Translations under genes and position numbers: made by a program
The notes under the pieces: model-generated
The model's database searches: none
Told to the model about the DNA's origin: nothing
The model's input: only the letters and a program-made list of their open reading frames with translations
Sequence record: PQ671645.1
Reading direction: 5' to 3' (one strand)
DNA length: 64,000 nucleotides
Source: Escherichia phage DCP548
In this document: positions 3,747 to 46,811 of the stretch, piece by piece
Numbering within the stretch: the stretch's first letter is position 1
How the letters are laid out: each line of letters starts with the position of its first letter

Positions 3747-6458
3747 TCAAAAATCGAACATATCGAATAGAGATGCTTTCTTCTCGTAATCGAGTTTCGC
3801 TGCTGATGTGAATCCTTCAAGTGGTTTAATAAATGTCTTCTCAAGGAGAACAGTGTAGTCCATCCAATGAAGTACGTCGTCTTTAATTAAATCTGTGATT
3901 TCAGTACCAGAAGGCCATGCGATACATTTATCACCGAATGGGTTTCCTTCGCGTAAAGGCAGAACATATACTTTTTCACCTTCTACAACTTGCGGTGCAT
4001 CGATATTACCTTTGATAGCCCGGTTATACGTCAGAATTCCACGAATATGGAACGGGCATTTGGGACCAGGGAATCCACCTACATCATATTTAGCAATGTT
4101 ATTCGCAGAAGATACCGACGCGATGCTAATATAATTCAATTGACGGAATTCTTTTTCAAACTCTTTAAAATATTCTTGTAATGATTCTTCACCTTCTTGA
4201 AGCATACGACGAATACATTCTTTAAGAGCTTTCTGTACTGCTTTAGGAGTCGAAGATTTCTGAGTCTCTAGACCCATGATTTTGAGTTTAGGCTCAGCGT
4301 AACGAGTACCTTCCATATCCCACACGTTTAATGCATAACGTTTCTTACCAGTCCAGAATCCACCAATACCTTTAGAACCGAGTGGAGGACCAGCGATAGC
4401 TTCTCGGTCCATGAACATTAAGTGTTGTTTATTGTTCATGTATTCACACATTTCACGGAAACCTCTATCAATAGCTGGTTCCATACGTTCACGTGCAAAC
4501 TTATCTAAGAAGTCTACCCAATGGTTGGTATCACGGAATTTAGATTCACCAACCTTATCGATAATTTTATCAGCAGATACGTAAATAGAGTCTGTATCAC
4601 CATAAAGAACGAAAGCTTCACCTTCTGTGCCACAAACTTCATTCAGATATTCATTAACTTTACGTTCAATCCACTGTAAAGCCATTTGACCAAATGTTGT
4701 GATTGCAGTAGCATTACGCAAATCATAATAACGAAACCAAACGTTGCCAAGTGCACCATAAAGTGAGTTGATAAGCAATTTACGGTTAATTTGGGCAGTC
4801 ATACCTGCAACTTCAGTACGTTGAGCTCTAAACAACATTTCATTAAGAGATTTAGCAGACAACTTTTTAATCTTTTCTTTAATCTCATCGCTGAAGTCGA
4901 AACGATAATCAACATCTAATGGTTCGTCAACAGAAAGATTAGGATTATGCAATGCCTCTTTAATTATTTCACCATTACGTTGAGCTGCAAGCATGTAACC
5001 TTTATGTTCTTTACGTTGATTAAAGACCTTAGTGATTTCAGTTGGAACTACACCATCACGGTCTTTATAATACATCATGCCGTTAGGAGAACAACTGTAC
5101 ACATCAGAAGGACGTTCAGCAACAGCGTTAATATAATCATGCAATGGAGCTACTTTAAACGTTCCTGCTATTGTTTCTGGGCTAATATTCACTTGGCGAA
5201 TAATACTTGGATACAGAGATGTAAGGTCGAAACTCATTACATATTTGTATCGATTTGGAATAGGTTCCTTAACAAAAGCGCCGGGATAAGGTTGAACCGG
5301 GTGAGAACGACCTTGTGGAATCACCTTGTTCTGCTCTTTAAGGCTATTAAAAATAATAGCATCCCATGTTTTAATTGGGCTAAACACAGATTGAATCTGT
5401 ATCTTAGCATAATAACCCATGTCCAAACTCAAGTTGATGAACTGACGCTTAGCATCAATTTGCAATACACGATACACATCGATAATGTTATAAGAAATAT
5501 ATCGTTGGTGATTGCTTTCACGAAGCTTAGAAATAGGGCCGTCATATTTCAGTTTACCAACGTTCAATTCAAATTCTGAAATGTAATCCAGAGAATATGA
5601 CGGCTGATTGGTAAAAGAGAATTTTTTGTAAAGGTCAATGTAATCAAGAACAGAGATACCGAATAATGTAATGATTTCACGAGAACCATACATGTTTTCG
5701 ATAACTTTAACACGAGTTTTACGATGTGGTGATAAACGTTTCGCAGTAGATTCGCCAAAAATATTCTTGATTCGGTTATACACATATGGAATATCAAATG
5801 ACTCAACGTTCCATCCAGTCAAAATGACAGGAGTTTTCTGTTGCCAGAAGTTGAGATATTCCATCAACAATTCTTTTTCGTTATCGAACGGCATATAAAT
5901 GATTTTATCGATAATTTCGGATGGAACTTCATCACCGCCTTGTTCTTGAAGCTTAGCAGCGATTTCAATAGACCATTCTTCTACATTACCATATGGAGAA
6001 TTCAATAGATCAAATACGTAGAACCTGTCGTCAATTGAGTCATAATGGGTGATAGCATCAATCGGATGTTTTGCTTGTGACGGCTCAGGGAACCCATCTG
6101 GAGATGTTACTTCGATGTCGAAGTTAGCCACACGAATTTTTGTATGGTCGTATTTGATTTCATAGTTATAAGTGTCAGACAAATACGCCAATTTGAAATC
6201 GTCCATGCCAAGTGCTTCAAGTCCGATATCTTCCATGCGTTTAATCCATTGTGAGGCATCACGCATATTGGCGAACAACTTACGAGTACACGGCTTACCG
6301 TAGATATCGAAATATTTCGTAGCCTGACTTTCTGGACAATGAGCAAACAGTGATGGTTTATATTCTACTTCACGAGTACGTTCACGGCCGTTAGAATCGA
6401 TGTAACGTTCAAAAATTGAATCACCAATCTGTTCAACCGTTAAGTAAAATTCTTTCAT
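3747..6458 (-). CDS. 43: DNA polymerase (family B)
   Basis: 903 aa; recognisable T4/RB69 gp43 sequence with exonuclease and polymerase motifs (FDIE, YGDTDS). Confidence 0.97.
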   Translation of the reverse strand: MKEFYLTVEQIGDSIFERYIDSNGRERTREVEYKPSLFAHCPESQATKYFDIYGKPCTRKLFANMRDASQWIKRMEDIGLEALGMDDFKLAYLSDTYNYEIKYDHTKIRVANFDIEVTSPDGFPEPSQAKHPIDAITHYDSIDDRFYVFDLLNSPYGNVEEWSIEIAAKLQEQGGDEVPSEIIDKIIYMPFDNEKELLMEYLNFWQQKTPVILTGWNVESFDIPYVYNRIKNIFGESTAKRLSPHRKTRVKVIENMYGSREIITLFGISVLDYIDLYKKFSFTNQPSYSLDYISEFELNVGKLKYDGPISKLRESNHQRYISYNIIDVYRVLQIDAKRQFINLSLDMGYYAKIQIQSVFSPIKTWDAIIFNSLKEQNKVIPQGRSHPVQPYPGAFVKEPIPNRYKYVMSFDLTSLYPSIIRQVNISPETIAGTFKVAPLHDYINAVAERPSDVYSCSPNGMMYYKDRDGVVPTEITKVFNQRKEHKGYMLAAQRNGEIIKEALHNPNLSVDEPLDVDYRFDFSDEIKEKIKKLSAKSLNEMLFRAQRTEVAGMTAQINRKLLINSLYGALGNVWFRYYDLRNATAITTFGQMALQWIERKVNEYLNEVCGTEGEAFVLYGDTDSIYVSADKIIDKVGESKFRDTNHWVDFLDKFARERMEPAIDRGFREMCEYMNNKQHLMFMDREAIAGPPLGSKGIGGFWTGKKRYALNVWDMEGTRYAEPKLKIMGLETQKSSTPKAVQKALKECIRRMLQEGEESLQEYFKEFEKEFRQLNYISIASVSSANNIAKYDVGGFPGPKCPFHIRGILTYNRAIKGNIDAPQVVEGEKVYVLPLREGNPFGDKCIAWPSGTEITDLIKDDVLHWMDYTVLLEKTFIKPLEGFTSAAKLDYEKKASLFDMFDF

Positions 6459-6470
6459 TTAATTTCCTTT

Positions 6471-6486
6471 AGACGAGTTATTGTCT
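6471..6486 (-). promoter_or_regulatory. Putative gene 43 translational operator hairpin (4-bp stem, 8-nt loop AAUAACUC) just 5' of the SD
   Basis: Minus-strand agac-aataactc-gtct followed by aaaggaaattaa-ATG; the loop resembles the T4 gp43 autoregulatory operator as I remember it. Confidence 0.4.
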
Positions 6487-6489
6487 TTT

Positions 6490-6535
6490 GTTTGTTGATG
6501 AACTTATTATACTCCAAATGGGACCGAAGTCCCAT
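6490..6535 (-). promoter_or_regulatory. Early promoter-like -10 (GAGTATAAT) with adjacent 7-bp UUCG-tetraloop hairpin directly after the regA stop
   Basis: Minus strand reads atgggac-TTCG-gtcccat then ttggagTATAATaag upstream of gene 43. Confidence 0.45.
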
Positions 6536-6539
6536 TGCT

Positions 6540-6917
6540 TTAATTACCAATTGTATATTTTGCTTTCAAAGTCCAGTCATCTTTCTGTTTAAAAGAGATA
6601 ACACGGAAGTTATTAGTCAGGCCAAACAGATCTTCACGAGCAGAGTCTTCAATAACAATCAATCCCCAGTCTTCAAGCAACTGAGCAATCGAATCACGTC
6701 GCTGATAGTCTTCACCATCAATATCAACCTGACGTCCGTCCATACGCAGCATTTCTTTAAAGTGGACGATATAGTACTTACCTTGCTTTTGGAGGATATG
6801 ACAAGACTGGTAAAGGACTTTATCCTTGTTATTAGCGATGCCCATACGGGTCAAAGTCTCTTTGACTTTTAGAAAATCTTCAGGGTTCTTCAATTTAATT
6901 TCAATCATTTTTACCAT
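6540..6917 (-). CDS. regA: Translational repressor RegA
   Basis: 125 aa; close match to remembered T4 RegA ([23 protein letters not shown]). Confidence 0.9.
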
Positions 6918-7474
6918 TCCAATGCTAATTTTTTAAATTGTTTTTGTTCTTTCACATTTTTTGTAACTTCTTTGAGAAACTCATCAGTGACCATGGCCTT
7001 CAGTTCTTTAAGGACTATTGGCAACTTGTTATTTTTTTCAAGGAGCCGCTTATACTCGGTAGCATCATTCATGTTGATTGTGTAATGTTTCATCAACAGT
7101 TTGATAACTAGTAACTCTGAAGTGTCTTCGACTAGTTTAGCCCATTTAGAGAATCGACGACCACGCGGAATTGCCGCCATCATATAGTTGAAGTGCGCTT
7201 CATCACTTAATTCAGAACCGACTAAGTTCATCATGTAAACAGCTGGCATACATTCTGGGAACTGGGATAATGAGTTCTCAACCATAAATTTTGAGTAGTC
7301 AACCTGAGCAATTGACATAGATTTCTTTTCATTAATAGCATTAATGATTTTAAAGAATTCATTCTCAGGTTTTTCTTTAAACATATCAGCACATTTTTGA
7401 ATCGCATCAGCGTCATTAGACTTCCATGCAATTTGGTGCTCGTTAAGCTGGACGTCATCATCGAATAAGTTCAT
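6911..7474 (-). CDS. 62: Clamp loader small subunit
   Basis: 187 aa, between regA and 44 as in T4. Confidence 0.85.
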
Positions 7475-7475
7475 A

Positions 7476-8438
7476 TTATTTCCAAGTCAGTTCGCAGGTC
7501 AGTTGAAGAAGCATATACATAACATGTAATTCAATATTACTTGCTAATCCATGAAACTTATTGTTTTCGCCTGCAATTTCATAAAGCGAAATAATACTTT
7601 TACCAGGTGCAACTTGGTCATAACATTCTGAAACTAATTTATCGATGAACCATGAATAATCTGCGGCATATTTTGGAGCTAATGCACGAAGCTGTTTGAT
7701 ATCTTTGTTCTTCATTGCTTCTATGACATCAGAGACTGTGCCACGGTCATTAGTTACGATAGACAAAATACCCGCATCAAGAACACCTTTAGACGAGTAC
7801 TGGTCTAATTGACCGATTGTGCGACGAAAGTCCGGGAAGTTCTTTTTAACAAGAGCTGCAACAACTTTCATATCAACGATTTCGATATTTTCGTTCTTAC
7901 AGATTTCAACCATACGATGAATCATTTTCTTCATCATCGAGATTTTATCTTCTTCGGTTGGACGTCCGAATTCGATAACTCGACAACGACTACGTAATGG
8001 TTCAATAATTCCATCGATGTTGTTAGCAGTAATAACAATAGAGCAGTTACTAGAGAATTCTTCCATAAACGTACGAAGGTGACGTTGTGATTCGGCGAGG
8101 CCACTACGGTCAAATTCATCAATAACAATAACTTTAGGCTTGCCTTCCATTGAGACTGAACGAGCGAATGCGGTTAACGGACCACGCACAAAATCAATCT
8201 TACAATCAGAACCGTTGACAAACATCATTTCGGCATTGATATCATTACATAATGCTTTTGCTACTGTTGTTTTACCTGTGCCAGGAGAAGGAGAGTGCAA
8301 AATAATATGAGGAAGTTTTCCTTTAGATACTAAAGACTTGAATGTTTCATGGTCATACGCAGGCAGAATACATTCGTCAATGGAAGAAGGACGATATTTC
8401 TGTTCTAGAATGTGTTCTTTGGAATTGATAGTAATCAT
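7476..8438 (-). CDS. 44: Clamp loader large subunit (AAA+ ATPase)
   Basis: 320 aa; Walker [11 protein letters not shown]; T4 gp44-like N-terminus. Confidence 0.95.
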
Positions 8439-11866: not shown

Positions 11867-12083
11867 CCATTTTAAGAATAGAGCCAGGAGTATCGTTGTC
11901 CATTATATTAAAGCTAAATTCAATAGCCCAGTCGGTGCAGACATGAACTGCTTTAACTTCATTGCCTTCAACGCGTAATGGCTCAATCCAATACTTGATA
12001 GTGTTCTCGAATCCATCATCATCTTTAACGTCCATTTCAACTTCAAGCCTGAGTCCAGCATTGTTAAATTCATCTAAAGTCAT
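11826..12083 (-). CDS. Hypothetical protein (46.2 position)
   Basis: 85 aa ORF. Confidence 0.4.
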   Translation of the reverse strand: MTLDEFNNAGLRLEVEMDVKDDDGFENTIKYWIEPLRVEGNEVKAVHVCTDWAIEFSFNIMDNDTPGSILKMVEACIKDAYNDEN

Positions 12084-13099
12084 TGTGTTGCCTCAATATA
12101 AAGTTCGTTGGAATATTTGACCAGCGCTTCTCTGTCTTCGTCTGAGATATCTGGAATCGCGTCAATATATTCTTTAATGATATCTTGAAGTGATTTAATC
12201 TCGATTTCCTGGTCGTCATCAGATTCAACACTGTTATCAACTTTAGAAACCATACGAAGAGAGTGAACTACTTTTTCAAGTTCAGATTCAAACTTAGTCA
12301 ACTCTGAATCAATTTCTGATACTATAACACGTACGGCTAGATTAGTATAATCAGAATAATTGATTTTGCCTTTAAACGGATAAGTGATTCGTCGATGCCA
12401 TGTTGTTTCATTAGGAATAAATTCCATACGTTCAACATCGGTGTCAAATACCCAGAATCCGCGCGGGTCGTTTTCATCACCTGCAGTAAGGGTCCATGGT
12501 GTCCCAATATATTTGACGTTAGCAGCTTCAGAGATTGTGTGGAAGTGGCCAGACCAGACTTGTTTATAGGTCTTTAAGAAATCAGGTTCAAGCCCATGAG
12601 ACTTCATTCCTTTATAGAAATAAAAACCATTCAGTTCCCAGTGCCCAACACAAAAAGAAGCAGATGAAGTTTTGATATGTTCAAGAATTTCACCAGTATT
12701 TTCTTCGCACATCCAAGGAATTAAATCAATCAAACATCCGTCAAAATCTACTGTAGTAGGCTTATCGTATACTTTAACATTAGGATATTTAGCTAAAAGC
12801 TCAGTAGAAGCGTTTGGAGTTAAAGTATTTTTAAAGTGCATATCATGGTTTCCTACAACAGTATGTAGGGTAATACCAGCATCATCAAGCATTTGAACTA
12901 TTTCACGTGCGAACTCCATAGTTTTATGCGTGATTGCTTTTCGCACATCAAAAATATCGCCGTATTGAATCCATGTAGTAATTCCATTTTTCTTAGAATA
13001 TTCTATCGCCTGCTTAATTCCATCCAACTGAATGGATTGAACCCACTCATCATCGGCTTTAACACCTAAATGCCAATCACCTAAATTTAAAATTTTCAT
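12080..13099 (-). CDS. 47: Recombination endonuclease subunit (SbcD/Mre11-like phosphoesterase)
   Basis: 339 aa; calcineurin-like motifs (LGDWH, GDIFD, GNHD). Confidence 0.92.
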   Translation of the reverse strand: MKILNLGDWHLGVKADDEWVQSIQLDGIKQAIEYSKKNGITTWIQYGDIFDVRKAITHKTMEFAREIVQMLDDAGITLHTVVGNHDMHFKNTLTPNASTELLAKYPNVKVYDKPTTVDFDGCLIDLIPWMCEENTGEILEHIKTSSASFCVGHWELNGFYFYKGMKSHGLEPDFLKTYKQVWSGHFHTISEAANVKYIGTPWTLTAGDENDPRGFWVFDTDVERMEFIPNETTWHRRITYPFKGKINYSDYTNLAVRVIVSEIDSELTKFESELEKVVHSLRMVSKVDNSVESDDDQEIEIKSLQDIIKEYIDAIPDISDEDREALVKYSNELYIEATQ

Positions 13100-21775: not shown

Positions 21776-22132
21776 TTAACCCCGGAGTTTATTGAGCTCT
21801 TCATAATCAATCCAGGATTCTAGTCCGGATGGCAGGTCACATTCAATGTTCCACAGAAGCTCTTCAATGGCTTGCAGGCGATTATATTCTTCAACGGTAA
21901 TGGTAACCATTGGTGCAACCGGTTCTGCCTTTTTAACCATCATATCGTTCATCAGGACGTAAAGGTCATCACGAACGACAGTGTCGTTCCAACCCCATGA
22001 TTTGGCTTCGTAAGCTAATGATGAAGGGAGCACATTTAAAACTTCAATAATAGTTGGAGCATCAGGACCAAGTTCATTGGCACAAACTTCGTATACATCT
22101 TGGAAATCTTTAAGATTTAATGAATATGTCAT
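21776..22132 (-). CDS. Hypothetical protein
   Basis: 118 aa ORF. Confidence 0.4.
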   Translation of the reverse strand: MTYSLNLKDFQDVYEVCANELGPDAPTIIEVLNVLPSSLAYEAKSWGWNDTVVRDDLYVLMNDMMVKKAEPVAPMVTITVEEYNRLQAIEELLWNIECDLPSGLESWIDYEELNKLRG

Positions 22133-22392
22133 TTAAAATATTCTCGTAGTTGGTCAAATCCACCAATGTGACTTCCGTCAGGAGCAAACACTTGAGGCAT
22201 AGTCAATCCGACTTGTGATTCACGTCCAAGCTTAACCAGAAGCTCAGCAATTTTCTCATCGTCAAACACACCTTTTTCTGGCATAACATTAATGAATTCA
22301 AATGGCTGTTTCTTAACAGTCAGCAATCGTTTCGCATTATCACAATAAATGCATTTATGAATAGTAGAGTCATACCCGTACACTTTAAACAT
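22129..22392 (-). CDS. nrdC: Thioredoxin/glutaredoxin
   Basis: Near-identical to remembered T4 NrdC (MFKVYGYDS.IHKC.YCDNAKRLL...); start set at the MFKVYGYD Met. Confidence 0.92.
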   Translation of the reverse strand: MFKVYGYDSTIHKCIYCDNAKRLLTVKKQPFEFINVMPEKGVFDDEKIAELLVKLGRESQVGLTMPQVFAPDGSHIGGFDQLREYFK

Positions 22393-22798
22393 TATTTTTC
22401 CTTTCATCGATTAAATATGCAACGCCAAATACAATACATGTAATAAAACCTGTGATACAGATAGAAACCAACAACACTGTACCAAAGAACCAAATCAAGT
22501 TATCTTTAGTAGTTTGTTTGATATCCATCTCACGAATTTCTATAGCTATCGTATCACCTTTATTCAGAAGCGTATAAAACGATGGCGATACACGCCTGTC
22601 AAAAACTCGTCCTTGCTCATCTTTATAGACTGCAATAAATTCTAATTTAGAATATTTTCCTGTAGATTGGCCTGAGATTAATTCCACTACCTCCACAGGA
22701 ATTACTTTAGTTTCCATGTAAGTATTCTGGCTGTTCCAAATGAATGGAATAATAGTAAAAACTAAAGCTGCGATAAAACAACGAAGGCTATATCTCAT
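22385..22798 (-). CDS. Membrane protein
   Basis: 137 aa with N- and C-terminal hydrophobic segments. Confidence 0.4.
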   Translation of the reverse strand: MRYSLRCFIAALVFTIIPFIWNSQNTYMETKVIPVEVVELISGQSTGKYSKLEFIAVYKDEQGRVFDRRVSPSFYTLLNKGDTIAIEIREMDIKQTTKDNLIWFFGTVLLVSICITGFITCIVFGVAYLIDERKNNV

Positions 22799-23103
22799 TA
22801 TAATGTTCTCTCAAATTTGTGGAAGCATTTACGGCATTTCAATTTCAAGTTATCAGTGGTCCAGTTAACCAGTTGGACTTGGATAGTTCCACATTCCGGG
22901 CACGGATGTTTTGCTGCCGATTTGGCAGCATTTTCACGTCGTTCAACCATTTTCATTATTTCGTTCCATGCCGGAGGAACGAACTCTTCTTCAACGTGGA
23001 TTTTATCTCGCTGAACAAATTCAATCTTTGAACTATCGTCAATAAACTTAACCAAACCGTGATTAGTGTTCATATCAATATCCTCTAAAAGACGTAGTTT
23101 CAT
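22798..23103 (-). CDS. Zinc-ribbon protein
   Basis: 101 aa; CPECG...CRKC. Confidence 0.4.
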   Translation of the reverse strand: MKLRLLEDIDMNTNHGLVKFIDDSSKIEFVQRDKIHVEEEFVPPAWNEIMKMVERRENAAKSAAKHPCPECGTIQVQLVNWTTDNLKLKCRKCFHKFERTL

Positions 23104-24047
23104 TATAAAACCTCAATGGCATTTCGTAAACCATCAGCTTTTGCATTCAGAGCTTTTAATGATTTAGTTTGTTCTGCAATCTGGGCTTCGACTTCTTTCA
23201 GGCGAGATTTGAGATATTCGCGTTCTTCTCTTAAGTTATCAACTTTTTCTGCTTTAGGCTCTTTAATAGGCTTATACTCGTTAGGGTTCTTCAACTTAAT
23301 TTGAATGCGAGAACTGTATAACATTGAACCATTATCTTCGGTTTCATCATACATTTCTACCACGTCCATGATTCTTAACATCATGCGAAGTTTATAAGAC
23401 AGCGAACGAATGGTTTTGTTGTGCTTATTAATTTCTTCGGCTTTCATGGTACCGAGATTACGTGAGTAGTAATAAGGAACCTGGATATCAATTGATAACG
23501 ATGCGGTACCATTACCTGTTGGTTTGAACACTGCAGTAACCCAATCTTTAGCATGAACTGTATTTGTACGATCATCGCCACCTGTGAATAATTTACGTGA
23601 ATGTTTAAAAAGCATATTCACTTGGTTATTGAATTCACAAGCAAATTTATCAGCAAATTTAGTTTCAGGAATGGTAGATAACCAATCAGCCAAATGAGTC
23701 TTTTTAACATCATTAACAATAGTGAATTCAACCAAATCGGTTTTAGATGTCACAGATTTAATAAAGCTCGGCTTCATAAAGTTTTTAATGTTATCGCGAG
23801 CTACAGTAGAAGATAATAAACGAGAACGTTTGAACCATTGAAGCAGTGTCCCTAATGAATGAGAATATGCATTCTGAGTATCTTTACAGATATGATTTTC
23901 TTGGCCTGTGTATGTACCAAAATCGCGAAGAATACCACTTACTACAACTCGGTGTGGAACATCAAATCCTAATGAACCAGAAGCACGTTGGGCATGAACG
24001 TTAGCGATAAGACCTGCAAAATAATCAATGTAATGTGAACGTGTCAT
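23103..24047 (-). CDS. Hypothetical protein with C-terminal coiled coil
   Basis: 314 aa; first of three tandem genes of similar size. Confidence 0.4.
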   Translation of the reverse strand: MTRSHYIDYFAGLIANVHAQRASGSLGFDVPHRVVVSGILRDFGTYTGQENHICKDTQNAYSHSLGTLLQWFKRSRLLSSTVARDNIKNFMKPSFIKSVTSKTDLVEFTIVNDVKKTHLADWLSTIPETKFADKFACEFNNQVNMLFKHSRKLFTGGDDRTNTVHAKDWVTAVFKPTGNGTASLSIDIQVPYYYSRNLGTMKAEEINKHNKTIRSLSYKLRMMLRIMDVVEMYDETEDNGSMLYSSRIQIKLKNPNEYKPIKEPKAEKVDNLREEREYLKSRLKEVEAQIAEQTKSLKALNAKADGLRNAIEVL

Positions 24048-24109
24048 AATATTTTCCTCTCGTTAAGATAGAAAGATTATACTCCAACCATCCTTGGTTG
24101 TAAACTGAT

Positions 24110-25045
24110 TTATGATTTTAATGCATTCATTGCGTTAAAAAGTTTAGAGTACTGCAACTGGAGCTTGGTAACTACTTGTTGAGCATCACGAAGCTTAGCT
24201 TGTGCTTTGTCAAGTTCAACAGACAGTTGGTCCACAGTGGCTTTGATTTGATTATAATAGTAATCTTCGGCAGGAAGAAGACCGTTAGAGATTTCCAGTT
24301 TAGTCGACGGTGAAGTGTATATAGATGGAGCAGTAAAATATGCACCTTGAACTTCAGCATTGCCAATTGGGGTTGTAGTAATTGACGCTTCGAACGTTGC
24401 ATTTTCCTTTTTAAGATTTTGATAGTATTCAGAGTCTTTGTGCCACCATGGCGCAGGAACCTTTTTACCAATAGATACACGAGCCTGGATAGCGATATGA
24501 CCCTTATTCTTGATAGGGTTGATAATATTAAGCTCACGAGAATAAATTGCTTTAATCTGGTGGATATTATCACCTAACACTTCCAACGCTTGGTGGAATA
24601 CACGAGCAACGTTATCATTCTTAGGTTTATACGTAAGAGTGAACTCGTTCTCACTGATAACCATGATTTCTAACTTATCGTAAGTATATTTCAAATGTTT
24701 CATGTTAATTGCTTGAGGACGAATACGAGAAGCAATGGCCATCAGATTGTTAAGGTTATTCCTGAACTGCTTAGCGAAATATTGTCCTTCACCGCCAATA
24801 CAAAAATTACGAAGTTTCTGTTTGGCTAATAAACGGCTGAACTCACCATTTTTAATGAACTCTTTAACGGGTGTGTTAGTAACGCATTCAAATTGAGTAA
24901 ACTTACGAGAATTAATCCCATAATATGAACAGATTTCCTCAATCTCTTCAGGAGTCTTTACAGGCATACGGATAGGATTAGGTCCTGGGGTATATGCGTT
25001 CGAGGTAAATTCTTTGATAAGTTCTCTACGTGTAATAGAAGCCAT
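24110..25045 (-). CDS. Hypothetical protein with C-terminal coiled coil
   Basis: 311 aa; preceded by an early promoter cassette nearly identical to the one before 25101..26096. Confidence 0.4.
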   Translation of the reverse strand: MASITRRELIKEFTSNAYTPGPNPIRMPVKTPEEIEEICSYYGINSRKFTQFECVTNTPVKEFIKNGEFSRLLAKQKLRNFCIGGEGQYFAKQFRNNLNNLMAIASRIRPQAINMKHLKYTYDKLEIMVISENEFTLTYKPKNDNVARVFHQALEVLGDNIHQIKAIYSRELNIINPIKNKGHIAIQARVSIGKKVPAPWWHKDSEYYQNLKKENATFEASITTTPIGNAEVQGAYFTAPSIYTSPSTKLEISNGLLPAEDYYYNQIKATVDQLSVELDKAQAKLRDAQQVVTKLQLQYSKLFNAMNALKS

Positions 25046-25100
25046 TTTATATTCCTCATGTTGAAAAATTTATTATACTCCAACCATCCTTGGTTGTACA

Positions 25101-26096
25101 TCATTCCTTAAGAAGTTTTACTACCTGAATAAGATTAGCTCGTTCTGTTTTATTTTTACTGTTTAAGCCTGCTAATCGTGAGATTTCATCGTCAGTCTGT
25201 TGAATAGTTACATTAAGTTCGTTAATCAAAGCTTCAAAGTATTTGATTTGCTCAGCATGTTTTGATTCGAATTTCTGAACCGGAATAACGTCTTGGTTTA
25301 GTTCATCAATAAGGTCTTTAAGAGCATCTTCTTGGTTGATATCATATTCAACTTCTTTTATTTCTTCAACGAGCTCGTCTTTATATCTAACGTCTTTTAG
25401 TCCTGGTGCTGGTCCTGAAATCTCTTCTTTAAGAGTACAAACATATCCAATACGGTATCCAATGCTGTCTCGCTTGATATCAACTTCGTCAATAAATCCA
25501 CAATGTTTAAGACCAGAGCCGATTAGGTCAAAATATCCTTGACGTCGTCCTTCAAACGTTACACGAACTACTAAGACAGTTTTACCTGCGACCTTTTGAA
25601 GCTCACATTTATAAAAGTCTGTTGAACCTGAATAACGTGGATGAGTTTTAAAGTTCATCTGACGATCTAGGCCCATTTGTAAGCGTGCTGATACGGCCAT
25701 AAAACGTGTTTGATTCTCGTTAAGATGAGCAACAATCCATTTCAAAGGCATTTTACACTGTTCACGACCGAACAAATCAGTACGTCCTAGATTACGCAGG
25801 ATGTTGTTAGAGTTAATCATCGACAGAACGTTAAGTTTATTCAGCGCGCTGAAGATTCCATCGGCCATTGATTTTCCGTAACCTTTACACGCTTTAATAA
25901 GCGCTCGTGGTAGGTTAGTATAGATTTCAGACGGCATATGAAAATCAAATTTACTAGTCAGTAATTGATGAACTTGGATAGCAATTTGCTCATAATTAAG
26001 TGCTCTGCGATCATTATGGTCTTTAAACCACACTTTAATCTGTGAAGCACATAAACCGTTAATTTCATGTTTTACCGCATCAGATGTAATGCTCAT
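25101..26096 (-). CDS. Hypothetical protein with C-terminal coiled coil
   Basis: 331 aa. Confidence 0.4.
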   Translation of the reverse strand: MSITSDAVKHEINGLCASQIKVWFKDHNDRRALNYEQIAIQVHQLLTSKFDFHMPSEIYTNLPRALIKACKGYGKSMADGIFSALNKLNVLSMINSNNILRNLGRTDLFGREQCKMPLKWIVAHLNENQTRFMAVSARLQMGLDRQMNFKTHPRYSGSTDFYKCELQKVAGKTVLVVRVTFEGRRQGYFDLIGSGLKHCGFIDEVDIKRDSIGYRIGYVCTLKEEISGPAPGLKDVRYKDELVEEIKEVEYDINQEDALKDLIDELNQDVIPVQKFESKHAEQIKYFEALINELNVTIQQTDDEISRLAGLNSKNKTERANLIQVVKLLKE

Positions 26097-26158
26097 AACT
26101 ATTTCCTCAGATTGAATTGGAACTCAAAACCATTATAACCCGTCCTTGGGTAAAGCGT

Positions 26159-26686
26159 TTATGCGTGAACCGTCTTTAAACGTTCTTCAAATTTCCGAAG
26201 AGTACTAATACGTTCTGCTTTCTGTTTTGTATAGTTTGCAATACGTTCTGAAGTGAGAGCGTATCGTTCATTTACTGTTTCTTTCATGAAGTCAGGGATT
26301 TCACGAGAAGCTTTAATTTCGTCAAACTTGTCGAGTACTGCCTGGTCTTCAGCGATTAAATTTTCGTACATCTCGATATCTTTCTTGATAAACTCGATAT
26401 CTTCCTGGGTTACTTTGGATAAACGAGATGCTTTATCCTTTTTGTACTGCTCGTTAGTTTCACGAGACCAGAATAATGTACGTTTTTTGTTAGTGTTTTT
26501 GTAGACTTCCACAATTCCAACTGAATCGATGATAGCAATCCAATTCCAGCGAGATTTGAAAATCTGACCTCCGTCCACGGTAATCTCGTTACCATAAGCA
26601 ACGTCATTAAAGAACTTGCTTTGTGCTTCAGATTTAAATTTACCGTCGTTATAATTTACCAGGTTGAAAATATCTTTAGCGTTCAT
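26159..26686 (-). CDS. Hypothetical protein
   Basis: 175 aa ORF. Confidence 0.4.
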   Translation of the reverse strand: MNAKDIFNLVNYNDGKFKSEAQSKFFNDVAYGNEITVDGGQIFKSRWNWIAIIDSVGIVEVYKNTNKKRTLFWSRETNEQYKKDKASRLSKVTQEDIEFIKKDIEMYENLIAEDQAVLDKFDEIKASREIPDFMKETVNERYALTSERIANYTKQKAERISTLRKFEERLKTVHA

Positions 26687-26744
26687 GTTTTACCTCCAGT
26701 AGTTGATAGGTCTATAATAACATAACTATAGACCTTGTAAACAA

Positions 26745-27032
26745 CTAAAAGAAACTTTTTTCGGTATTTTTTCCACTGAACCAAACAGACTTCGGGATTT
26801 TTTGTAATTTTTCAGATTTAAGTTTCTCTTCCTGTTCTTTCTTATATACACCCTTGTCGTACTGGAGCATCTCTATGGCATTCTTTTGCAAATGATCTAA
26901 GGTAATTAAGGCTTTAGTTTTTCCTTTCAAGGAAGAGTCCTGGCGAACCTCCTCGCTATATTGCATCGTAGAACTAATCATACGATGAGCATAGAGTTCA
27001 ACTGCGGCTTTAATTTTTTGCATAAAATCCAT
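26745..27032 (-). CDS. Hypothetical protein
   Basis: 95 aa ORF. Confidence 0.35.
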   Translation of the reverse strand: MDFMQKIKAAVELYAHRMISSTMQYSEEVRQDSSLKGKTKALITLDHLQKNAIEMLQYDKGVYKKEQEEKLKSEKLQKIPKSVWFSGKNTEKSFF

Positions 27033-27170
27033 AACATATCCTCTTTGATTTGTACATCATTATTTTTAAATATTTCTATGCCCTCAGTAGGTTCCTAGTG
27101 TCCTTCTTTGAGGTAAGCCATATGATTATTCATCTTTATGGCTTTTGTTACCTCAGAACTTCCTATAAGC

Positions 27171-28172
27171 TTATTTCAGTAAAGTTACTTCAGAGATTTC
27201 CTCCCAACCATCTTTATCAGTTGAAATAAAATCTGCTACATAAAGAGCCGTACGTAATGATACATTGCGAAGACGAGATACGTTAGCCTTCATCCAGGAC
27301 AATGCTTTATACGTTTCTGCATCCGTCAGACCACGTTTCTGCATCATGTCAGTAGATAATATTACGTCTTCAACTCGAACCATAATCTCTTCATTAGAGT
27401 GTACTCCAAGATCGAGATACACTGAACGAGATACTAAAGCTTGAAGGTGTGGGGCAAGTTTCGAACCGCGTTCTAACTCTTTATCGATATCAACGTTTGT
27501 AATGAAAACGATAGTACCTTCAAACTCAAATTCTTTATCAATACCCTTATCATCGAGATAAGATGACGCAGTGCTCCAACAAACTTTGCGTTTATCTCCA
27601 GTATCTAATGCTGCTTTAAGAAGGTTCAAGATGTCCATATCTGAGAATACGTCAACGTCGTCGATTAAGAGAACGCTGTCTGCATCACGGTTGAGCCAAA
27701 GTTGTTCGTAAAGGCCAATACCAGAGATTTTACCATTAATGCTTTTGTATTTGATGAAACCATTATCATTAGCATTATTAAGTGCTTTATCCAGAGAATA
27801 CGTCTTACCAATACCAGCTGCACCTGAAATAATGAGTGAACGAATTTTGCCATCGATAATGCCATTCGTCATCATGTTCATTACTTTAAAGCGTTTGTTG
27901 ATACGAGTTTTCATATCTTCAGTGCTTTCAACAACTGCAACTGGTGACGTCTCAACTCCTTCCATTACGATGTCTGATTTGAAGACCCATACTCCACGTT
28001 CAGAACCATCAATCATAACGAAAATTTTACCATCACCTAAGTGGGAACATTCAGGATTAAGCTTTGCCGGGAACCAGGTCTTTGTGGCAACATAAGAACC
28101 AGAGATTTCGTTATTACGATAGATACCTTTTTTGATTTGAACGTTGAACATTTTATTCTCCAATTTACTCAT
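27171..28172 (-). CDS. P-loop NTPase (AAA-like ATPase)
   Basis: 333 aa; Walker A GAAGIGKT and Walker B LLIDDVD. Confidence 0.5.
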   Translation of the reverse strand: MSKLENKMFNVQIKKGIYRNNEISGSYVATKTWFPAKLNPECSHLGDGKIFVMIDGSERGVWVFKSDIVMEGVETSPVAVVESTEDMKTRINKRFKVMNMMTNGIIDGKIRSLIISGAAGIGKTYSLDKALNNANDNGFIKYKSINGKISGIGLYEQLWLNRDADSVLLIDDVDVFSDMDILNLLKAALDTGDKRKVCWSTASSYLDDKGIDKEFEFEGTIVFITNVDIDKELERGSKLAPHLQALVSRSVYLDLGVHSNEEIMVRVEDVILSTDMMQKRGLTDAETYKALSWMKANVSRLRNVSLRTALYVADFISTDKDGWEEISEVTLLK

Positions 28173-28268
28173 TTCGTTTCGATAGGTCTATAATAACATA
28201 TCCTAAAAGCATGTACACCACTTTTTTAAATATTTTAACCCCCTAAAGGGACCCGAAGGTCCCCACAT

Positions 28269-28535
28269 TTACTTATCGCACTTAGCAACATAATTAGGCA
28301 TATCACAGAATACGGAGCGAGTAACTACTCGGCCCTTTGACCATGCTTCAGTTGCTTGTCCGGCGGTGCTATTAATATAGCTTGATCTAATGTTCTCAAT
28401 ACCCTGAGAATGTGATGCATTTACCGAACCATTAGAAGGCCCAGAAGACTGGTTACCACCAGCTCCTGCACCCGTGGTAGCACCAACAGAGAATGCCATC
28501 ATTACTGCGAATAAACCAATTACTAATTTTTTCAT
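28269..28535 (-). CDS. Small secreted protein
   Basis: 88 aa; N-terminal signal peptide (MKKLVIGLFAVMMAFSVGA); G/S/N-rich. Confidence 0.4.
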   Translation of the reverse strand: MKKLVIGLFAVMMAFSVGATTGAGAGGNQSSGPSNGSVNASHSQGIENIRSSYINSTAGQATEAWSKGRVVTRSVFCDMPNYVAKCDK

Positions 28536-28566
28536 ATTTACCTCAAGTTAATGGTTATTTATCTAC

Positions 28567-29556
28567 TTATTTATAGTAAGAATTATGATTTTCGAGATAG
28601 ACTTGTTCAAGGAAATCATCCCAGAAACTCATATCTACTTTTTGTTGCATACCGTTCTTGGCAGCTTGTTCTGACGCATGTTCAACTTGGTCGACGATAT
28701 CTTCTAGGAATTCTTGTACAGTTTTAAACGTATGTTTACCGAGCTTAACATCGAGAATAAATGGAGCATCCTGAAGTGGGTAAACCAGGTCGCCGGTTTT
28801 ATAAATTTCTAATAGTTGAAGTCCACCACGACATGCATGACTCAATGCTTTCCAATCAATACCTTCGTTAGCTTCTGCCTTACGAGCACGTTCGCCATAG
28901 TTCTCTTCTAGTTTAACCAGGATGGCATTGAACTCTTTATTGGTTAATGTGTCTTGGAATTTACGGTCTAACAGATTATAGAATGTTTGCTTACCTGTTT
29001 TCTCGTTTTCGGTTTCAACCCATGAAGCAAATTCACCTACAGGCAGAACATTCTTCATATGTGATAAACGAATTACTGCACCATTATCAAAGTATTGTCC
29101 CCATTCATTAGAACGTTTAAGGGCTTGACGAAGAACAGCCAGTCGAGAACCCTTGACACCGTATTTAGAAGCTTGCTTACGGACATACCCTAAATAAGAT
29201 TTCATGTTAGTGGTATAGAAACGAGACCTGTTATCTTGAATATACTTCCATACATCAGGCAAATCAGATTTAACTACTAAACTTGGTGGAGTGTGAAGCA
29301 TATCTAATGCGACGGTTTCACCATCTGCAGCTAATTTAAAGAAATATTTGAGACTATACAACTCGTGGTCCACGTCGTCTTTTGTATTCTTAGAAGATGT
29401 GTTATTCGTGTTCTTGCTCATATGTTCTTTAACGTTACCGGTCAAAATATCACGAGCATGAGGGACATAAATTTCTTTAAAATCGACGTCAGATTCAGGA
29501 GTAGACGTTCCATAAAGGTGGCTACCAAAGTAGCCTTTCATAATTGTTTTCATCAT
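28567..29556 (-). CDS. Nucleotidyltransferase-fold protein (Pol-beta-like minimal NTase motif)
   Basis: 329 aa; N-terminal GS-x10-DVD signature (YFGSHLYGTSTPESDVDF). Confidence 0.45.
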   Translation of the reverse strand: MMKTIMKGYFGSHLYGTSTPESDVDFKEIYVPHARDILTGNVKEHMSKNTNNTSSKNTKDDVDHELYSLKYFFKLAADGETVALDMLHTPPSLVVKSDLPDVWKYIQDNRSRFYTTNMKSYLGYVRKQASKYGVKGSRLAVLRQALKRSNEWGQYFDNGAVIRLSHMKNVLPVGEFASWVETENEKTGKQTFYNLLDRKFQDTLTNKEFNAILVKLEENYGERARKAEANEGIDWKALSHACRGGLQLLEIYKTGDLVYPLQDAPFILDVKLGKHTFKTVQEFLEDIVDQVEHASEQAAKNGMQQKVDMSFWDDFLEQVYLENHNSYYK

Positions 29557-33003: not shown

Positions 33004-33212
33004 TTAGGTTCACCTTCTTTAACGAAATCCGGGTAAGGGTAAAATCCTGAGTAAAACCCTTCACCTTTATGATTGCTACAACCTTTGTTCGAACAGTAAC
33101 ACCAATAATCAAAATCACAAGCCATTTCGTCATTGCATAAAGCAAAAACTACAGGCCATTCGCATTTTTCGCATTTAGCACCTGTAAGAATTTTTGTTTG
33201 ACTCATAACCAT
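33000..33212 (-). CDS. Cys-rich (probable zinc-binding) small protein
   Basis: 70 aa; CEKCEW...C...C.C...C. Confidence 0.4.
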   Translation of the reverse strand: MVMSQTKILTGAKCEKCEWPVVFALCNDEMACDFDYWCYCSNKGCSNHKGEGFYSGFYPYPDFVKEGEPK

Positions 33213-33430
33213 GTCACCTTTAAGCAGTATTCTTCTACATGCTGTTTACGACCTTTCTTATCAATAAAGGTATATTCAACGAATGTTCCGATGTAGTCTT
33301 TATCTACATCATGTGGACTATTAATTGGACATTTGGTACGACAAATGCGTTCCCATTGACGAATAATTACTACCTTATTCTTTGGGTCATATGGATGTGG
33401 ATAATGTATATTCATAATAACGGTTCCCAA
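33203..33430 (-). CDS. Hypothetical protein
   Basis: 75 aa ORF. Confidence 0.35.
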   Translation of the reverse strand: MGTVIMNIHYPHPYDPKNKVVIIRQWERICRTKCPINSPHDVDKDYIGTFVEYTFIDKKGRKQHVEEYCLKVTWL

Positions 33431-33909
33431 TCAACAATCACAATTTCTAGTTTAGTGGAATACGTATCTAAAATCTCTTCGATGACATCCCAGTTTCCAC
33501 CACCGATACCTGCACCAATTCTTGGCATATAAATTACAGGCTTTGTTATCTTATTCTTTCCGAATTCATTTAATTCTATTATACAATTCATTAAAGCAGA
33601 GTACTCAAAATTAGGTCCCGGCTCAAACTGCGTATAAAGATTAAAGCAATAAGCTTTATGGGTCTTAAAATATTTTTCATAAACCGAATAAGTCCCGAGT
33701 TTAGACTTGTCTCCGAATTCGGTTTGAAGTTTATCGGCTTCTAAAATTTTTGGATAAGCCTTTGCTAATTGTCCTGCCACACCAGCGCCCATTGTATGAA
33801 AACAATTACACCCATGAGCAATATTATTACCTTTAGAAAACAGGGCGACAATATCGCCCTTGATATAGTTTTTAATCACTTGCTGCAAGTCCTCTATTAT
33901 AAGAGTCAA
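33412..33909 (-). CDS. Possible macro-domain (ADP-ribose binding/hydrolase) protein
   Basis: 165 aa; NIAHGCNC...MGAGVAGQLAKAYP resembles the macro-domain NAAN...GGGVAGAI segment. Weak, pattern-based. Confidence 0.35.
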   Translation of the reverse strand: MTLIIEDLQQVIKNYIKGDIVALFSKGNNIAHGCNCFHTMGAGVAGQLAKAYPKILEADKLQTEFGDKSKLGTYSVYEKYFKTHKAYCFNLYTQFEPGPNFEYSALMNCIIELNEFGKNKITKPVIYMPRIGAGIGGGNWDVIEEILDTYSTKLEIVIVDWEPLL

Positions 33910-34219
33910 CTAGACGGTCCACCATAGAATTGCATGCTGCCTTATCTTTAGGTTCCGCCACCGAGCATTCTAATATTTGCCATTTTTTATAGTATCTTTT
34001 AATTAAGGTAGACGCCTTGAACCTACTAGACGCCCCATCTTTTTCTCCGTCTTTATACGCATATAACAATTTTTGTGAAAAATCTACTTTACACTCTTGA
34101 CTTTTACCACAATAATCAGACGCCGTTCTGTTTGTATACTCCGTTACATCAGTATATGTAGTATTAGCAAGAGCGTTAAATGAAACCAAGCTAACTATTA
34201 AAGCCAACATTTTGGTCAT
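33872..34219 (-). CDS. Small secreted protein
   Basis: 115 aa; signal peptide MTKMLALIVSLVSFNALA. Confidence 0.4.
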   Translation of the reverse strand: MTKMLALIVSLVSFNALANTTYTDVTEYTNRTASDYCGKSQECKVDFSQKLLYAYKDGEKDGASSRFKASTLIKRYYKKWQILECSVAEPKDKAACNSMVDRLVDSYNRGLAASD

Positions 34220-34758
34220 TCTTTTATTTCCAGTAGTTTATTTGATTTAAGGTAATTAGCCTTTTCTAGGACTTCAGAAGCATATTTACTTCCAGCACTT
34301 GTCTTCCATCCCGCATTATATGAGGATATAGCTTTTCTTATATCCCCGTTATGTATATTTAACCAATAAGAAAATTCGATATAAGCCCATCTGGCTGAAT
34401 TAGACCGCTTAGATAGCATTTTCTTAATTTGGGCATCAGTCATATTGTAACCAAGCTGGTTAATTCTTGCCCTCATTGTTGGTAGATAATTTTGGAACAT
34501 TCCATACGCATGGTGACCTTTCTTATCTTTAAGATTAATACCGGCAGATGATTCTTGCCATAGTATTGCGGCCATTATGTATCCAAGTCCTTTCTTATGC
34601 ATATTTTCATGCGTTTTAAATTTTCCATCCTTAGAAAACTGTTCCCCAAACTGATAAGCATAATTCAAGTTATCGAGTTGGACATTACTAAAAGTATGCT
34701 CGGAGCTATGTGCTGATAATGAAAGAGCAAATAGACCAGCGAGTAGTGCTTTTCTCAT
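34216..34758 (-). CDS. Secreted lytic transglycosylase-like protein (SLT domain)
   Basis: Signal peptide plus SLT motifs QESSAG, AYGMFQ, YNAGW. Confidence 0.5.
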   Translation of the reverse strand: MRKALLAGLFALSLSAHSSEHTFSNVQLDNLNYAYQFGEQFSKDGKFKTHENMHKKGLGYIMAAILWQESSAGINLKDKKGHHAYGMFQNYLPTMRARINQLGYNMTDAQIKKMLSKRSNSARWAYIEFSYWLNIHNGDIRKAISSYNAGWKTSAGSKYASEVLEKANYLKSNKLLEIKE

Positions 34759-34766
34759 GTTTACCT

Positions 34767-35225
34767 CTAGATTTTAATCACTGCTTTAGAAGCTTTTCCG
34801 GGTAGTCGTTTACTGTTAATAATAGCCATTCTGCATTGAAGAGTCTTCATTTTGAATGCTGGATTTTCGCGACAAACTGTAAGTCCTAACCAAAGATTTC
34901 CATCAGTTATTTCTAAACGGCCTGGGCGATATTCGACACCTTCGACAAAATCTTCATCAACATCTGGACGTGCTGGCATTGATAAAAATTCTGCAACTTC
35001 TTTAACATGATTTTTTACTTTACGAAATAATTCAAAAACGTAATTCTCATCTATTTCTCTCTGGATGGCACGATCTAAGAGATGTTGAGAATACTTGATA
35101 TGAAAGCCTGGTAGTCCAAGAGACTTTGCAGCATCTTTTATACTGGCATTTATTTTGCGGAACTCCGTTTCAAAGATTCGACGGAGTTTATTACGGCGGA
35201 TAAAAACGTCTGAATTGATAGTCAT
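34767..35225 (-). CDS. regB: Site-specific endoribonuclease RegB
   Basis: 152 aa; close match to remembered T4 RegB. Confidence 0.9.
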   Translation of the reverse strand: MTINSDVFIRRNKLRRIFETEFRKINASIKDAAKSLGLPGFHIKYSQHLLDRAIQREIDENYVFELFRKVKNHVKEVAEFLSMPARPDVDEDFVEGVEYRPGRLEITDGNLWLGLTVCRENPAFKMKTLQCRMAIINSKRLPGKASKAVIKI

Positions 35226-46583: not shown

Positions 46584-46811
46584 TTAGATGTAAATTATTT
46601 CAACGTCACCTTTAGCTGCTTTATAACCTTCAGCCCAAGATACAACAGAGTTTTTATCTGAGGATTCAAATTCAGGCATTGGACTTTCACCAATATTCAC
46701 ACAGTATGTTTCTTCATTTTCATCGAACCAAATAATTAAAGTAGTCATTTTGTTTACTCCTCTGTAGTTGATAAGTCTATAGTAACACCGTCCTTGGCGT
46801 TTGTACATCAT
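46584..46811 (-). CDS. Hypothetical protein
   Basis: 75 aa ORF. Confidence 0.35.
   Translation of the reverse strand: MMYKRQGRCYYRLINYRGVNKMTTLIIWFDENEETYCVNIGESPMPEFESSDKNSVVSWAEGYKAAKGDVEIIYI

Follow-up and report, generated by a model that had tools for sequence, protein, structure and literature searches.

The window analysed here is a 64,000-nucleotide (64-kb) stretch of Escherichia phage DCP548 (PQ671645.1), a T-even-type (RB69-like) phage, and our subject is a tandem array of three genes in its nrdC-rI block. As the preliminary description of this DNA had stated, three consecutive genes encode proteins of 314, 311 and 331 amino acids (aa), here called w314, w311 and w331; all three are present, on the minus strand, and each is preceded by a GAGG-type ribosome-binding site. 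Over 23000-26200, the window shares 99.4% identity with Escherichia phage HY126 and 96-99% with JS09, APCEc01 and other RB69-like phages. Counting both sides together, the array is flanked by nrdD, the endonuclease VII gene, nrdC, nrdC.8, nrdC.10 and nrdC.11. Such genes have long been annotated as hypothetical in this well-known phage group, and counter-defence has been published for one family member. What is new is that nrdC.3, nrdC.4, nrdC.5 and nrdC.6 constitute one superfamily, as is established below by comparing sequence profiles.

Each of the three proteins has a counterpart in T4, where NrdC.3, NrdC.4 and NrdC.6 are uncharacterised proteins encoded between nrdC and mobD, and the genome order is kept. 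The counterpart of w314 is NrdC.3 (UniProt P39254; 57% identity in BLASTP, with NrdC.4 as a second, weak match), and that of w331 is NrdC.6 (29% identity, E 1e-18 in BLASTP; 33% in tblastn). NrdC.4 is present in T4 and not in the window phage; by BLASTP, neither nrdC.4 nor nrdC.1 has a homologue among the 12 open reading frames (ORFs) of 21776-29556 that were compared with T4. The third protein, w311, matches T4 NrdC.5 at 23% identity over 307 residues (BLASTP, E 4e-7), with 16-24% in the N-terminus and the beta and linker regions. Pfam DUF7235 (PF23882) matches w311 with 376.8 bits against a cut-off of 30 (protein residues 15-310, model positions 1-307 of 307), and DUF7235 is also the family of T4 NrdC.5. 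A hidden Markov model (HMM) of the NrdC.5 family scores T4 NrdC.5 at 3e-24, and the RB69 counterpart of w311 carries the annotation NrdC.5. Furthermore, w311 and T4 NrdC.5 share the same place in the genome, where the T4 gene is described as early, and a C-terminal helix ending in ...L-x-N-A-x-N-A-L; w311 is the shorter of the two by 29 residues, and two insertions are absent from it. Within the superfamily, w314 and w331 are paralogues that stand further from NrdC.5, and the DUF7235 model matches neither of them.

Databases place the three proteins apart. They fall into three different PHROGs, all of them function-unknown (w314 in PHROG 1435), and the label PF26899 is carried by 108 of the 108 homologues of w331 in precomputed tables. 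No family was found for w314 by the Pfam search, and the searches of all three proteins gave no match in NCBIfam, PADLOC or PDB sequences and nothing in Pfam beyond DUF7235. A phmmer search of w314 against 1.84 billion representative proteins returned 3 clusters only, with none outside to serve as a bridge. We note in passing that the NrdC.3-type gene of HY126 (6104-7063) is annotated as a 224-aa 'thioredoxin', whereas its open frame has 319 codons; the 'thioredoxin' label given to all nrdC.x genes in many records is a naming artefact.

Remote homology and architecture of the array proteins

The preliminary description suggested that the three might be a diversified family within the variable nrdC-rI block. 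No similarity among w314, w311 and w331 was detected by pairwise BLASTP, and single-linkage BLAST clustering over several phages resulted in three groups, namely nrdC.3 with nrdC.4, nrdC.5, and nrdC.6. With small alignments, hhalign connected nrdC.5 to nrdC.3/4 (92.6%, E 5e-7) and gave only weak scores to nrdC.6, though colinear on the same motifs. Larger family alignments gave 97.3% (P 2e-11) for nrdC.3-nrdC.4, 88.4% (P 3e-6) for nrdC.4-nrdC.5 and 68.8% (P 4.5e-5) for nrdC.3-nrdC.5. The single-family comparison of nrdC.5 with nrdC.6 was weak (P 0.01), and adding secondary structure derived from AlphaFold2 did not raise its score. A scan of IMG/VR with the nrdC.5 alignment found 4 loci only.

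We obtained bridges to nrdC.6 from the nrdC.11-anchored regions of Klebsiella, Enterobacter and Acinetobacter phages together with three more alleles from Karamviruses, which are Enterobacter phages. The resulting four-sequence Karamvirus profile matched both nrdC.6 (90.1%, P 1.6e-6) and a Klebsiella phage protein (95.3%, P 2e-8). The families were then merged into two supergroups, nrdC.3+4+5 (43 sequences) and nrdC.6+Karamvirus+Klebsiella (38 sequences), which aligned to each other over 200 colinear columns at full length (97.0%, P 8.7e-11) and over 122 colinear columns after removal of the coiled-coil tails (96.8%, P 2.2e-10). Reversed or column-shuffled control profiles gave P 0.12-0.98, and the control families nrdC.10, nrdC.11 and small neighbouring genes gave P 0.15-0.8. 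Every subfamily also matched the opposite supergroup when taken singly: nrdC.3 at 95.3% (P 2e-8), nrdC.4 at P 1e-7, nrdC.5 at P 4e-6 and nrdC.6 at 86.1% (P 5e-6). HMM-to-sequence matches crossed the divide in the same way, from the nrdC.3/4/5 HMM to the Klebsiella phage protein (5e-7) and from the Karamvirus HMM to T4 NrdC.5 (2e-4). Across the whole window, the superfamily HMMs matched w314, w311 and w331 and nothing else.

These comparisons establish, at the level of sequence profiles, that w314, w311 and w331 are remote homologues within one phage-specific superfamily, nrdC.3/4/5/6, and the family surmised earlier is thereby supported with clean controls. The opposite explanation, that they are unrelated ORFans of similar length whose likeness comes from coiled-coil composition and forced alignment, could appeal to the empty BLASTP result, the weak nrdC.5-nrdC.6 comparison, the three PHROGs and the two separate Pfam families, but it is highly improbable and already largely refuted by the tail-less signal, the null controls, the subfamily matches at P 5e-6 or better and the common order of secondary structure in the two models described below. 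As further members of the family, nrdC.2, nrdC.7, nrdC.8, nrdC.9 and ORFs of 88 and 118 aa were rejected by profile comparison (P 0.15-0.8).

We modelled w331 (30-sequence alignment) and w311 (26-sequence alignment) with AlphaFold2. The w331 model has a mean predicted local distance difference test score (pLDDT) of 70 and a predicted template modelling score of 0.58, with a confident helical domain at residues 3-141 (pLDDT 80-92). It continues with strands at 162-169 and 172-179, a helix at 186-198, strands at 205-209 and 216-221 and a disordered stretch at 225-257, and ends in helices 281-307 and 313-330. The w311 model has helices up to residue 108, strands at 125-131 and 134-139, a helix at 144-163, strands at 171-180 and 183-191 and, after a low-confidence segment at 194-258, a single long helix at 259-310 (pLDDT 75-88). 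The predicted order of elements is the same in the two models (w311 at pLDDT 54): a helical N-domain, a beta-hairpin/helix/beta-hairpin module, a disordered linker and a C-terminal helix. The globular N-terminal region proposed in the preliminary description is confidently modelled in w331 but not in w311. The low confidence for w311 is probably due to its shallow alignment, as the word-index search with the nrdC.5 alignment missed T4-type proteins. No solved structure resembled the w311 or w331 model.

The C-terminal coiled-coil tails of about 50 residues that had been described were confirmed as heptad-repeat helices of about 45-55 residues, but they are not acidic. The last 55 residues carry net charges of +1 (w314), +1 (w311) and -1 (w331), so the tails are charge-balanced. 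Heptad stretches were found at residues 267-312 of w314, 260-311 of w311 and 281-310 of w331 (crude a/d score of at least 0.6 in 28-residue windows, which merged into stretches of 30-52 residues), and all three tails have at least four heptads of hydrophobic periodicity in a proline-free helix, which we used as the coiled-coil criterion. The N-terminal parts are basic, with isoelectric points of 9.4 (w314), 9.4 (w311) and 8.1 (w331). The conserved helical core (Table 1) contains a two-helix motif that reads roughly F/L-K-x-S/G-x-L-S-R-x-x-A-x-x-x-L-x-N-F, followed by N-x-x-x-L-L-A-x-A-x-R-L.

A Foldseek search of BFVD with the w331 model retrieved nrdC.6 proteins and uncharacterised proteins of about 300-335 aa (E 2e-8 to 4e-4) from T4-like phages of Enterobacter, Pectobacterium, Klebsiella, Serratia and Acinetobacter. 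The w311 model retrieved RB69 NrdC.5, proteins of 330-375 aa from Serratia, Erwinia and Citrobacter phages, and the entries E5EYP1 and E5EYP0, of which E5EYP0 was matched by both models. Judged by their lengths and adjacency, E5EYP1 and E5EYP0 are Ac42p119 and Ac42p118 of Acinetobacter phage Ac42. These two proteins (348 and 318 aa, respectively) are encoded side by side at 33054-35058 on the minus strand of Ac42, and both have heptad-like helical tails. The structural matches suggest that the habit of forming tandem arrays may extend to distant Straboviridae such as Ac42. A 308-aa protein of Yersinia phage fPS-65, also a Foldseek match, was not confirmed as NrdC.3 and was absent from the cluster listing.

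Promoter-like sites, allelic variation and array content

Two of the genes had been described as lying behind nearly identical promoter cassettes. Indeed, there are exactly two copies of the 26-nucleotide string TTATACTCCAACCATCCTTGGTTGTA, one at 24077-24102 upstream of w314 and one at 25073-25098 upstream of w311, against 0 expected by chance. Both cassettes rank within the top four sigma-70-like matches of the coding strand in 22000-29000, and the w314 site is the best overall. The case for them rests on quality, position and exact duplication because the total number of sigma-70-like sites in the region equals the shuffle expectation. A G in front of the w314 cassette gives GTTTAC, which we take to be the T4 early form of the -35 element. 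The two cassettes are predicted from the sequence to form T4-early-type (sigma-70) promoters. Upstream of w331, we read a site that may represent a MotA-dependent middle promoter, for which the T4 consensus is a MotA box TGCTTtA followed after 11-13 bp by a TAnnnT -10 element.

The same MotA-box-like arrangement is found after nrdC.8 in T4, ACG-C40, JS10 and Pinarejo. In T4, JS10, ACG-C40, Pinarejo and Mosigvirus-type contigs, the spacer core CCAAGGATGG is found again in front of array members or in the promoter-like site that follows nrdC.8. Elsewhere in the window, this core has one further promoter-like occurrence only, at 46768-46810 on the minus strand (spacer core GTACAAACGCCAAGGACGGTGTTACTATAG), far from the nrdC block. 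The recurrence of the spacer would fit duplication of gene and promoter as a unit, or a conserved locus-specific promoter.

Table 1. Positions of the array genes, promoter-like sites and protein segments in the window
Feature	Position	Strand	Basis or remark
w314, NrdC.3-type	23103-24047	-	ORF, 314 aa
w311, NrdC.5-type, DUF7235	24110-25045	-	ORF, 311 aa
w331, NrdC.6-type	25101-26096	-	ORF, 331 aa
Predicted promoter cassette upstream of w314: TTTACA-N17-TATAAT, spacer ACCAAGGATGGTTGGAG	24076-24104	-	11/12 sigma-70-like match; exact 26-nucleotide repeat
Predicted promoter cassette upstream of w311: TGTACA-N17-TATAAT, same spacer as w314 site	25072-25100	-	10/12 match; second exact repeat copy
MotA-box-like site upstream of w331: cGCTTTA, 13 nucleotides containing CCAAGGACGG, TATAAT	26132-26156	-	read from sequence
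Conserved helical core of w314, aa 66-153: LQWFKRSRLLSSTVARDNIKNF ... FADKFACEFNNQVNMLFKHSRKL	23589-23852	-	start of inter-supergroup alignment
Conserved helical core of w311, aa 58-108: VKEFIKNGEFSRLLAKQKLRNFC ... FAKQFRNNLNNLMAIASRI	24722-24874	-	hhalign to w314 and w331 cores
Conserved helical core of w331, aa 78-141: FSALNKLNVLSMINSNNILRNLGR ... LNENQTRFMAVSARL	25674-25865	-	hhalign; pLDDT 80-92
Heptad-repeat tail of w314, aa 267-314	23106-23249	-	heptad scan
Long C-terminal helix of w311, aa 259-311	24113-24271	-	AlphaFold2 model, heptad scan
C-terminal helical tail of w331, aa 281-331	25104-25256	-	AlphaFold2 model, heptad scan 281-310

The array genes are much less similar to T4 than their surroundings, with 57% (w314), 23% (w311) and 29% (w331) identity compared with 92% for the flanking nrdC, 83% for nrdC.8, 78% for nrdC.10 and 78% for nrdC.11. 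When alleles are compared, identity is highest in the helical core and the tail (40-70%) and drops to 6-24% in the N-terminus, the beta module and the linker. The core of w314 is 59% identical to that of NrdC.3, among the better-kept parts, and 31% identical to that of NrdC.4, where it is the best-kept part; for w331, the core is 40-47% identical between alleles and its flanks 6-23%. The tail of w314 is 70% identical to the T4 NrdC.3 tail, and the w331 tail is 56-59% identical between alleles. In tblastn searches, w311 was found in 132 records, all of the Mosigvirus type, w314 in 653 records with three allele classes, and w331 in 741 records with two main classes. Among Mosigvirus-type relatives, the ratio of nonsynonymous to synonymous substitution rates (dN/dS) is 0.04-0.27 for the array genes, of which w311 is the least constrained, against 0.01-0.09 for nrdC.10, nrdC.11 and nrdD. 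Because of these ratios, w314, w311 and w331 are regarded as functional genes under purifying selection.

The array varies from one to four members across related phages, and deletion remnants are present, so that the comparison of presence and absence suggested in the preliminary description also agrees with a variable family. T4 and two IMG/VR Tequatrovirus contigs have nrdC.3, nrdC.4, nrdC.5 and nrdC.6; the window phage, HY126 and two IMG/VR contigs have nrdC.3, nrdC.5 and nrdC.6; JS10 has nrdC.4, nrdC.5 and nrdC.6; Pinarejo has nrdC.3, nrdC.4 and nrdC.5 with a remnant of the nrdC.6 tail; ACG-C40 has nrdC.6 and a fused remnant made of the nrdC.5 start and the nrdC.3 end; and the Karamviruses and Klebsiella phage Roth68 have one member. 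In ACG-C40 (7790-8219), the deletion took most of nrdC.5, nrdC.4 and nrdC.3 and left two overlapping 76-codon frames, one matching NrdC.5 at its N-terminus and the other NrdC.3 over its last 70 residues; the NrdC.3-like stretch is 82% identical to w314 residues 245-314. In Pinarejo (7989-8141), the last 47 codons of nrdC.6 remain, unannotated, upstream of nrdC.5, an independent loss of a member. The reference T4 nrdC.6 (11997-12894 of the T4 locus, 275 aa) carries a frameshift close to the 3' end when compared with the gene in ACG-C40, JS10 and other phages (295-296 aa). The helical tail lost by this frameshift, FRLSGLSSKAKSEREKLIKIVDLLKS, can still be read in another frame immediately upstream of nrdC.5; w331 retains its tail.

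Proposed role of the array and alternative explanations

Previously, a T4 clone with nrdC.5 deleted was found not to plate on ECOR17 or on MG1655 carrying ECOR17 dsr1 (PMC9391042), and expression of nrdC.5 alone restored plating of the T4 clone on dsr1 cells (Srikant et al. 2022, PMC9391042). The SIR2-domain protein Dsr1 has a sensor domain in common with Avs7; this domain recognises the phage major capsid protein and occurs in thousands of diverse defence proteins (PMC13581612). Two further proteins of the same variable early block, the 49-nrdC region of T-even phages, act against defence systems: gp49.2 inhibits OLD (PMC13096335) and NrdC.1 inhibits Septu (bioRxiv 2025.11.20.689424). Like the array proteins, these are small or medium-sized proteins without known domains, and they were found through loss or gain of plating on defended hosts; they differ in being much smaller and unrelated in sequence, and neither gp49.2 nor gp49.3 has a homologue by BLASTP among the 12 ORFs of 21776-29556. 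Among the large fragments missing from viable T4 mutants with reduced genomes is nrdC.1-6 (PMC9825161). Our full-text search on the names nrdC.3 to nrdC.8 found no paper that gives a function for nrdC.3, nrdC.4 or nrdC.6 or describes the four genes as one family.

We favour, with moderate confidence, the explanation that w314, w311 and w331 form a tandem paralogous early array whose products are probably oligomeric inhibitors of host immune proteins. We infer the anti-defence role from the homology, the genomic context and the pattern of evolution, and w311, from its sequence, is a candidate for a Dsr1-type target. According to this model, the predicted strong early-type promoters of w314 and w311 and the putative middle-type promoter of w331 would supply the proteins before the late proteins are made. 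The proteins would then bind and neutralise abortive-infection or other immune proteins of the host stoichiometrically, as NrdC.5 may do with the SIR2 NADase Dsr1. Core and tail, the conserved parts, would form a scaffold, with the tail oligomerising, and the parts that diverge fast (N-terminus, beta module and linker) would determine the host protein, or the variant of that protein, to which each binds. A functional analogue for the presumed action of NrdC.5 is DSAD1 of SPbeta-like phages, which is reported to bind and block the defence-associated sirtuin NADase DSR2. DSAD1 comes from a different phage group and has a different target (DSR2, not DSR1), and its mechanism is reported to be structurally established.

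Several observations weigh against this explanation. An experimental function is known in the superfamily for T4 NrdC.5 alone, and w311 is so distant from it, with variable regions near random identity, that it may have another target or lack the activity. That NrdC.5 blocks Dsr1 by direct binding is assumed from its likeness to the DSAD1/DSR2 pair. That the tail most likely drives oligomerisation is read from a crude heptad score and from the long helices that the monomer models show. Confidence in the w311 model is low overall, and the model is poor outside residues 90-190 and the tail. The links to Acinetobacter phages are a structural likeness in Foldseek that sequence profiles do not confirm. 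Finally, the gene-wide dN/dS stays below 0.3, with no sign of positive selection at this depth.

Some of the same observations would suit accessory early proteins of one family that serve ends other than counter-defence, such as remodelling of host physiology, binding to nucleic acid or the nucleoid, or exclusion of competitor phages, with the anti-Dsr1 activity of NrdC.5 as a lineage-specific speciality. The basic N-terminal parts, the low dN/dS, the single member of known function and the lack of matches to anti-defence or defence models are in line with such roles. However, the sole experimental datum in the superfamily is anti-defence, neighbouring genes are anti-defence as well, and the variation in copy number, the allelic jumps and the dispensability in laboratory hosts suit host-range genes better than genes for core takeover. 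We regard roles of this kind as possible but rather unlikely.

Another alternative is that all three proteins target Dsr1-type SIR2 NADases or other proteins with the Dsr1/Avs7 sensor and differ only in the sensor variant, so that the array would be a panel of anti-Dsr1 alleles. The membership of w311 in the NrdC.5 family and the core and tail common to the paralogues are compatible with such a panel, and the sensor domain, found in thousands of diverse defence proteins, offers many variants to match (PMC13581612). On the other hand, the paralogues are less than 20% identical outside the core, which is beyond what target variants seem to need, and NrdC.5 alone sufficed in T4, where the available text of the study does not state the status of nrdC.3, nrdC.4 and nrdC.6 in the escape clone. 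We consider a pure anti-Dsr1 panel improbable. A structural or scaffold role suggested by weak Phage_scaffold and SMC-like matches of the tails was rejected because these reflect coiled-coil composition below threshold, the promoter-like sites upstream are of the early or middle type, and genome-reduced T4 mutants that have lost the counterparts are viable.

If the favoured reading as immune inhibitors is correct, it can be widened, though here we are doubtful. NrdC.3-6 and the look-alikes of about 300-350 aa in Enterobacter, Klebsiella, Pectobacterium, Serratia and Acinetobacter phages might all belong to one widespread modular anti-sensor platform, in which hypervariable surfaces sit on a conserved helical core and an oligomerising tail, tandem duplication of gene and promoter generates panels of inhibitors, and the whole is a major, hitherto unrecognised determinant of host range in Straboviridae. 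Each inhibitor would then be matched to a different immune protein, for instance to those that share the capsid-sensing domain of Dsr1 and Avs7. The array is not a new kind of system. Nevertheless, with the superfamily recognised, three or four orphan genes in each phage become specific candidates for counter-defence, in phages that are used as models and in therapy. The division into a conserved core and tail and variable regions indicates where target specificity should lie and offers a handle on the block of Dsr1 by NrdC.5.

Neighbouring genes

Next to nrdC, in the place that nrdC.1 occupies in T4, lies a homologue of nrdC.7 (22385-22798, minus strand) that encodes a predicted membrane protein of 137 aa. 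The 118-aa ORF at 21776-22132 has no match in T4. Between nrdC.10 and nrdC.11, the 88-aa ORF (28269-28535, minus strand) encodes a signal-peptide-like N-terminus (MKKLVIGLFAVMMAFSVGA...) and a Gly/Ser-rich stretch and has no BLAST counterpart in the nrdC region of T4. The NrdC.8 homologue (26159-26686, minus strand; 175 aa, 83% identical to T4) has a heptad-like C-terminal helix at residues 146-174 and is unrelated to the array family (hhalign P 0.4-0.6). In T4, nrdC.8 transcripts were reported in 2026 to be lowered in DRT1-expressing cells (PMC13275509).

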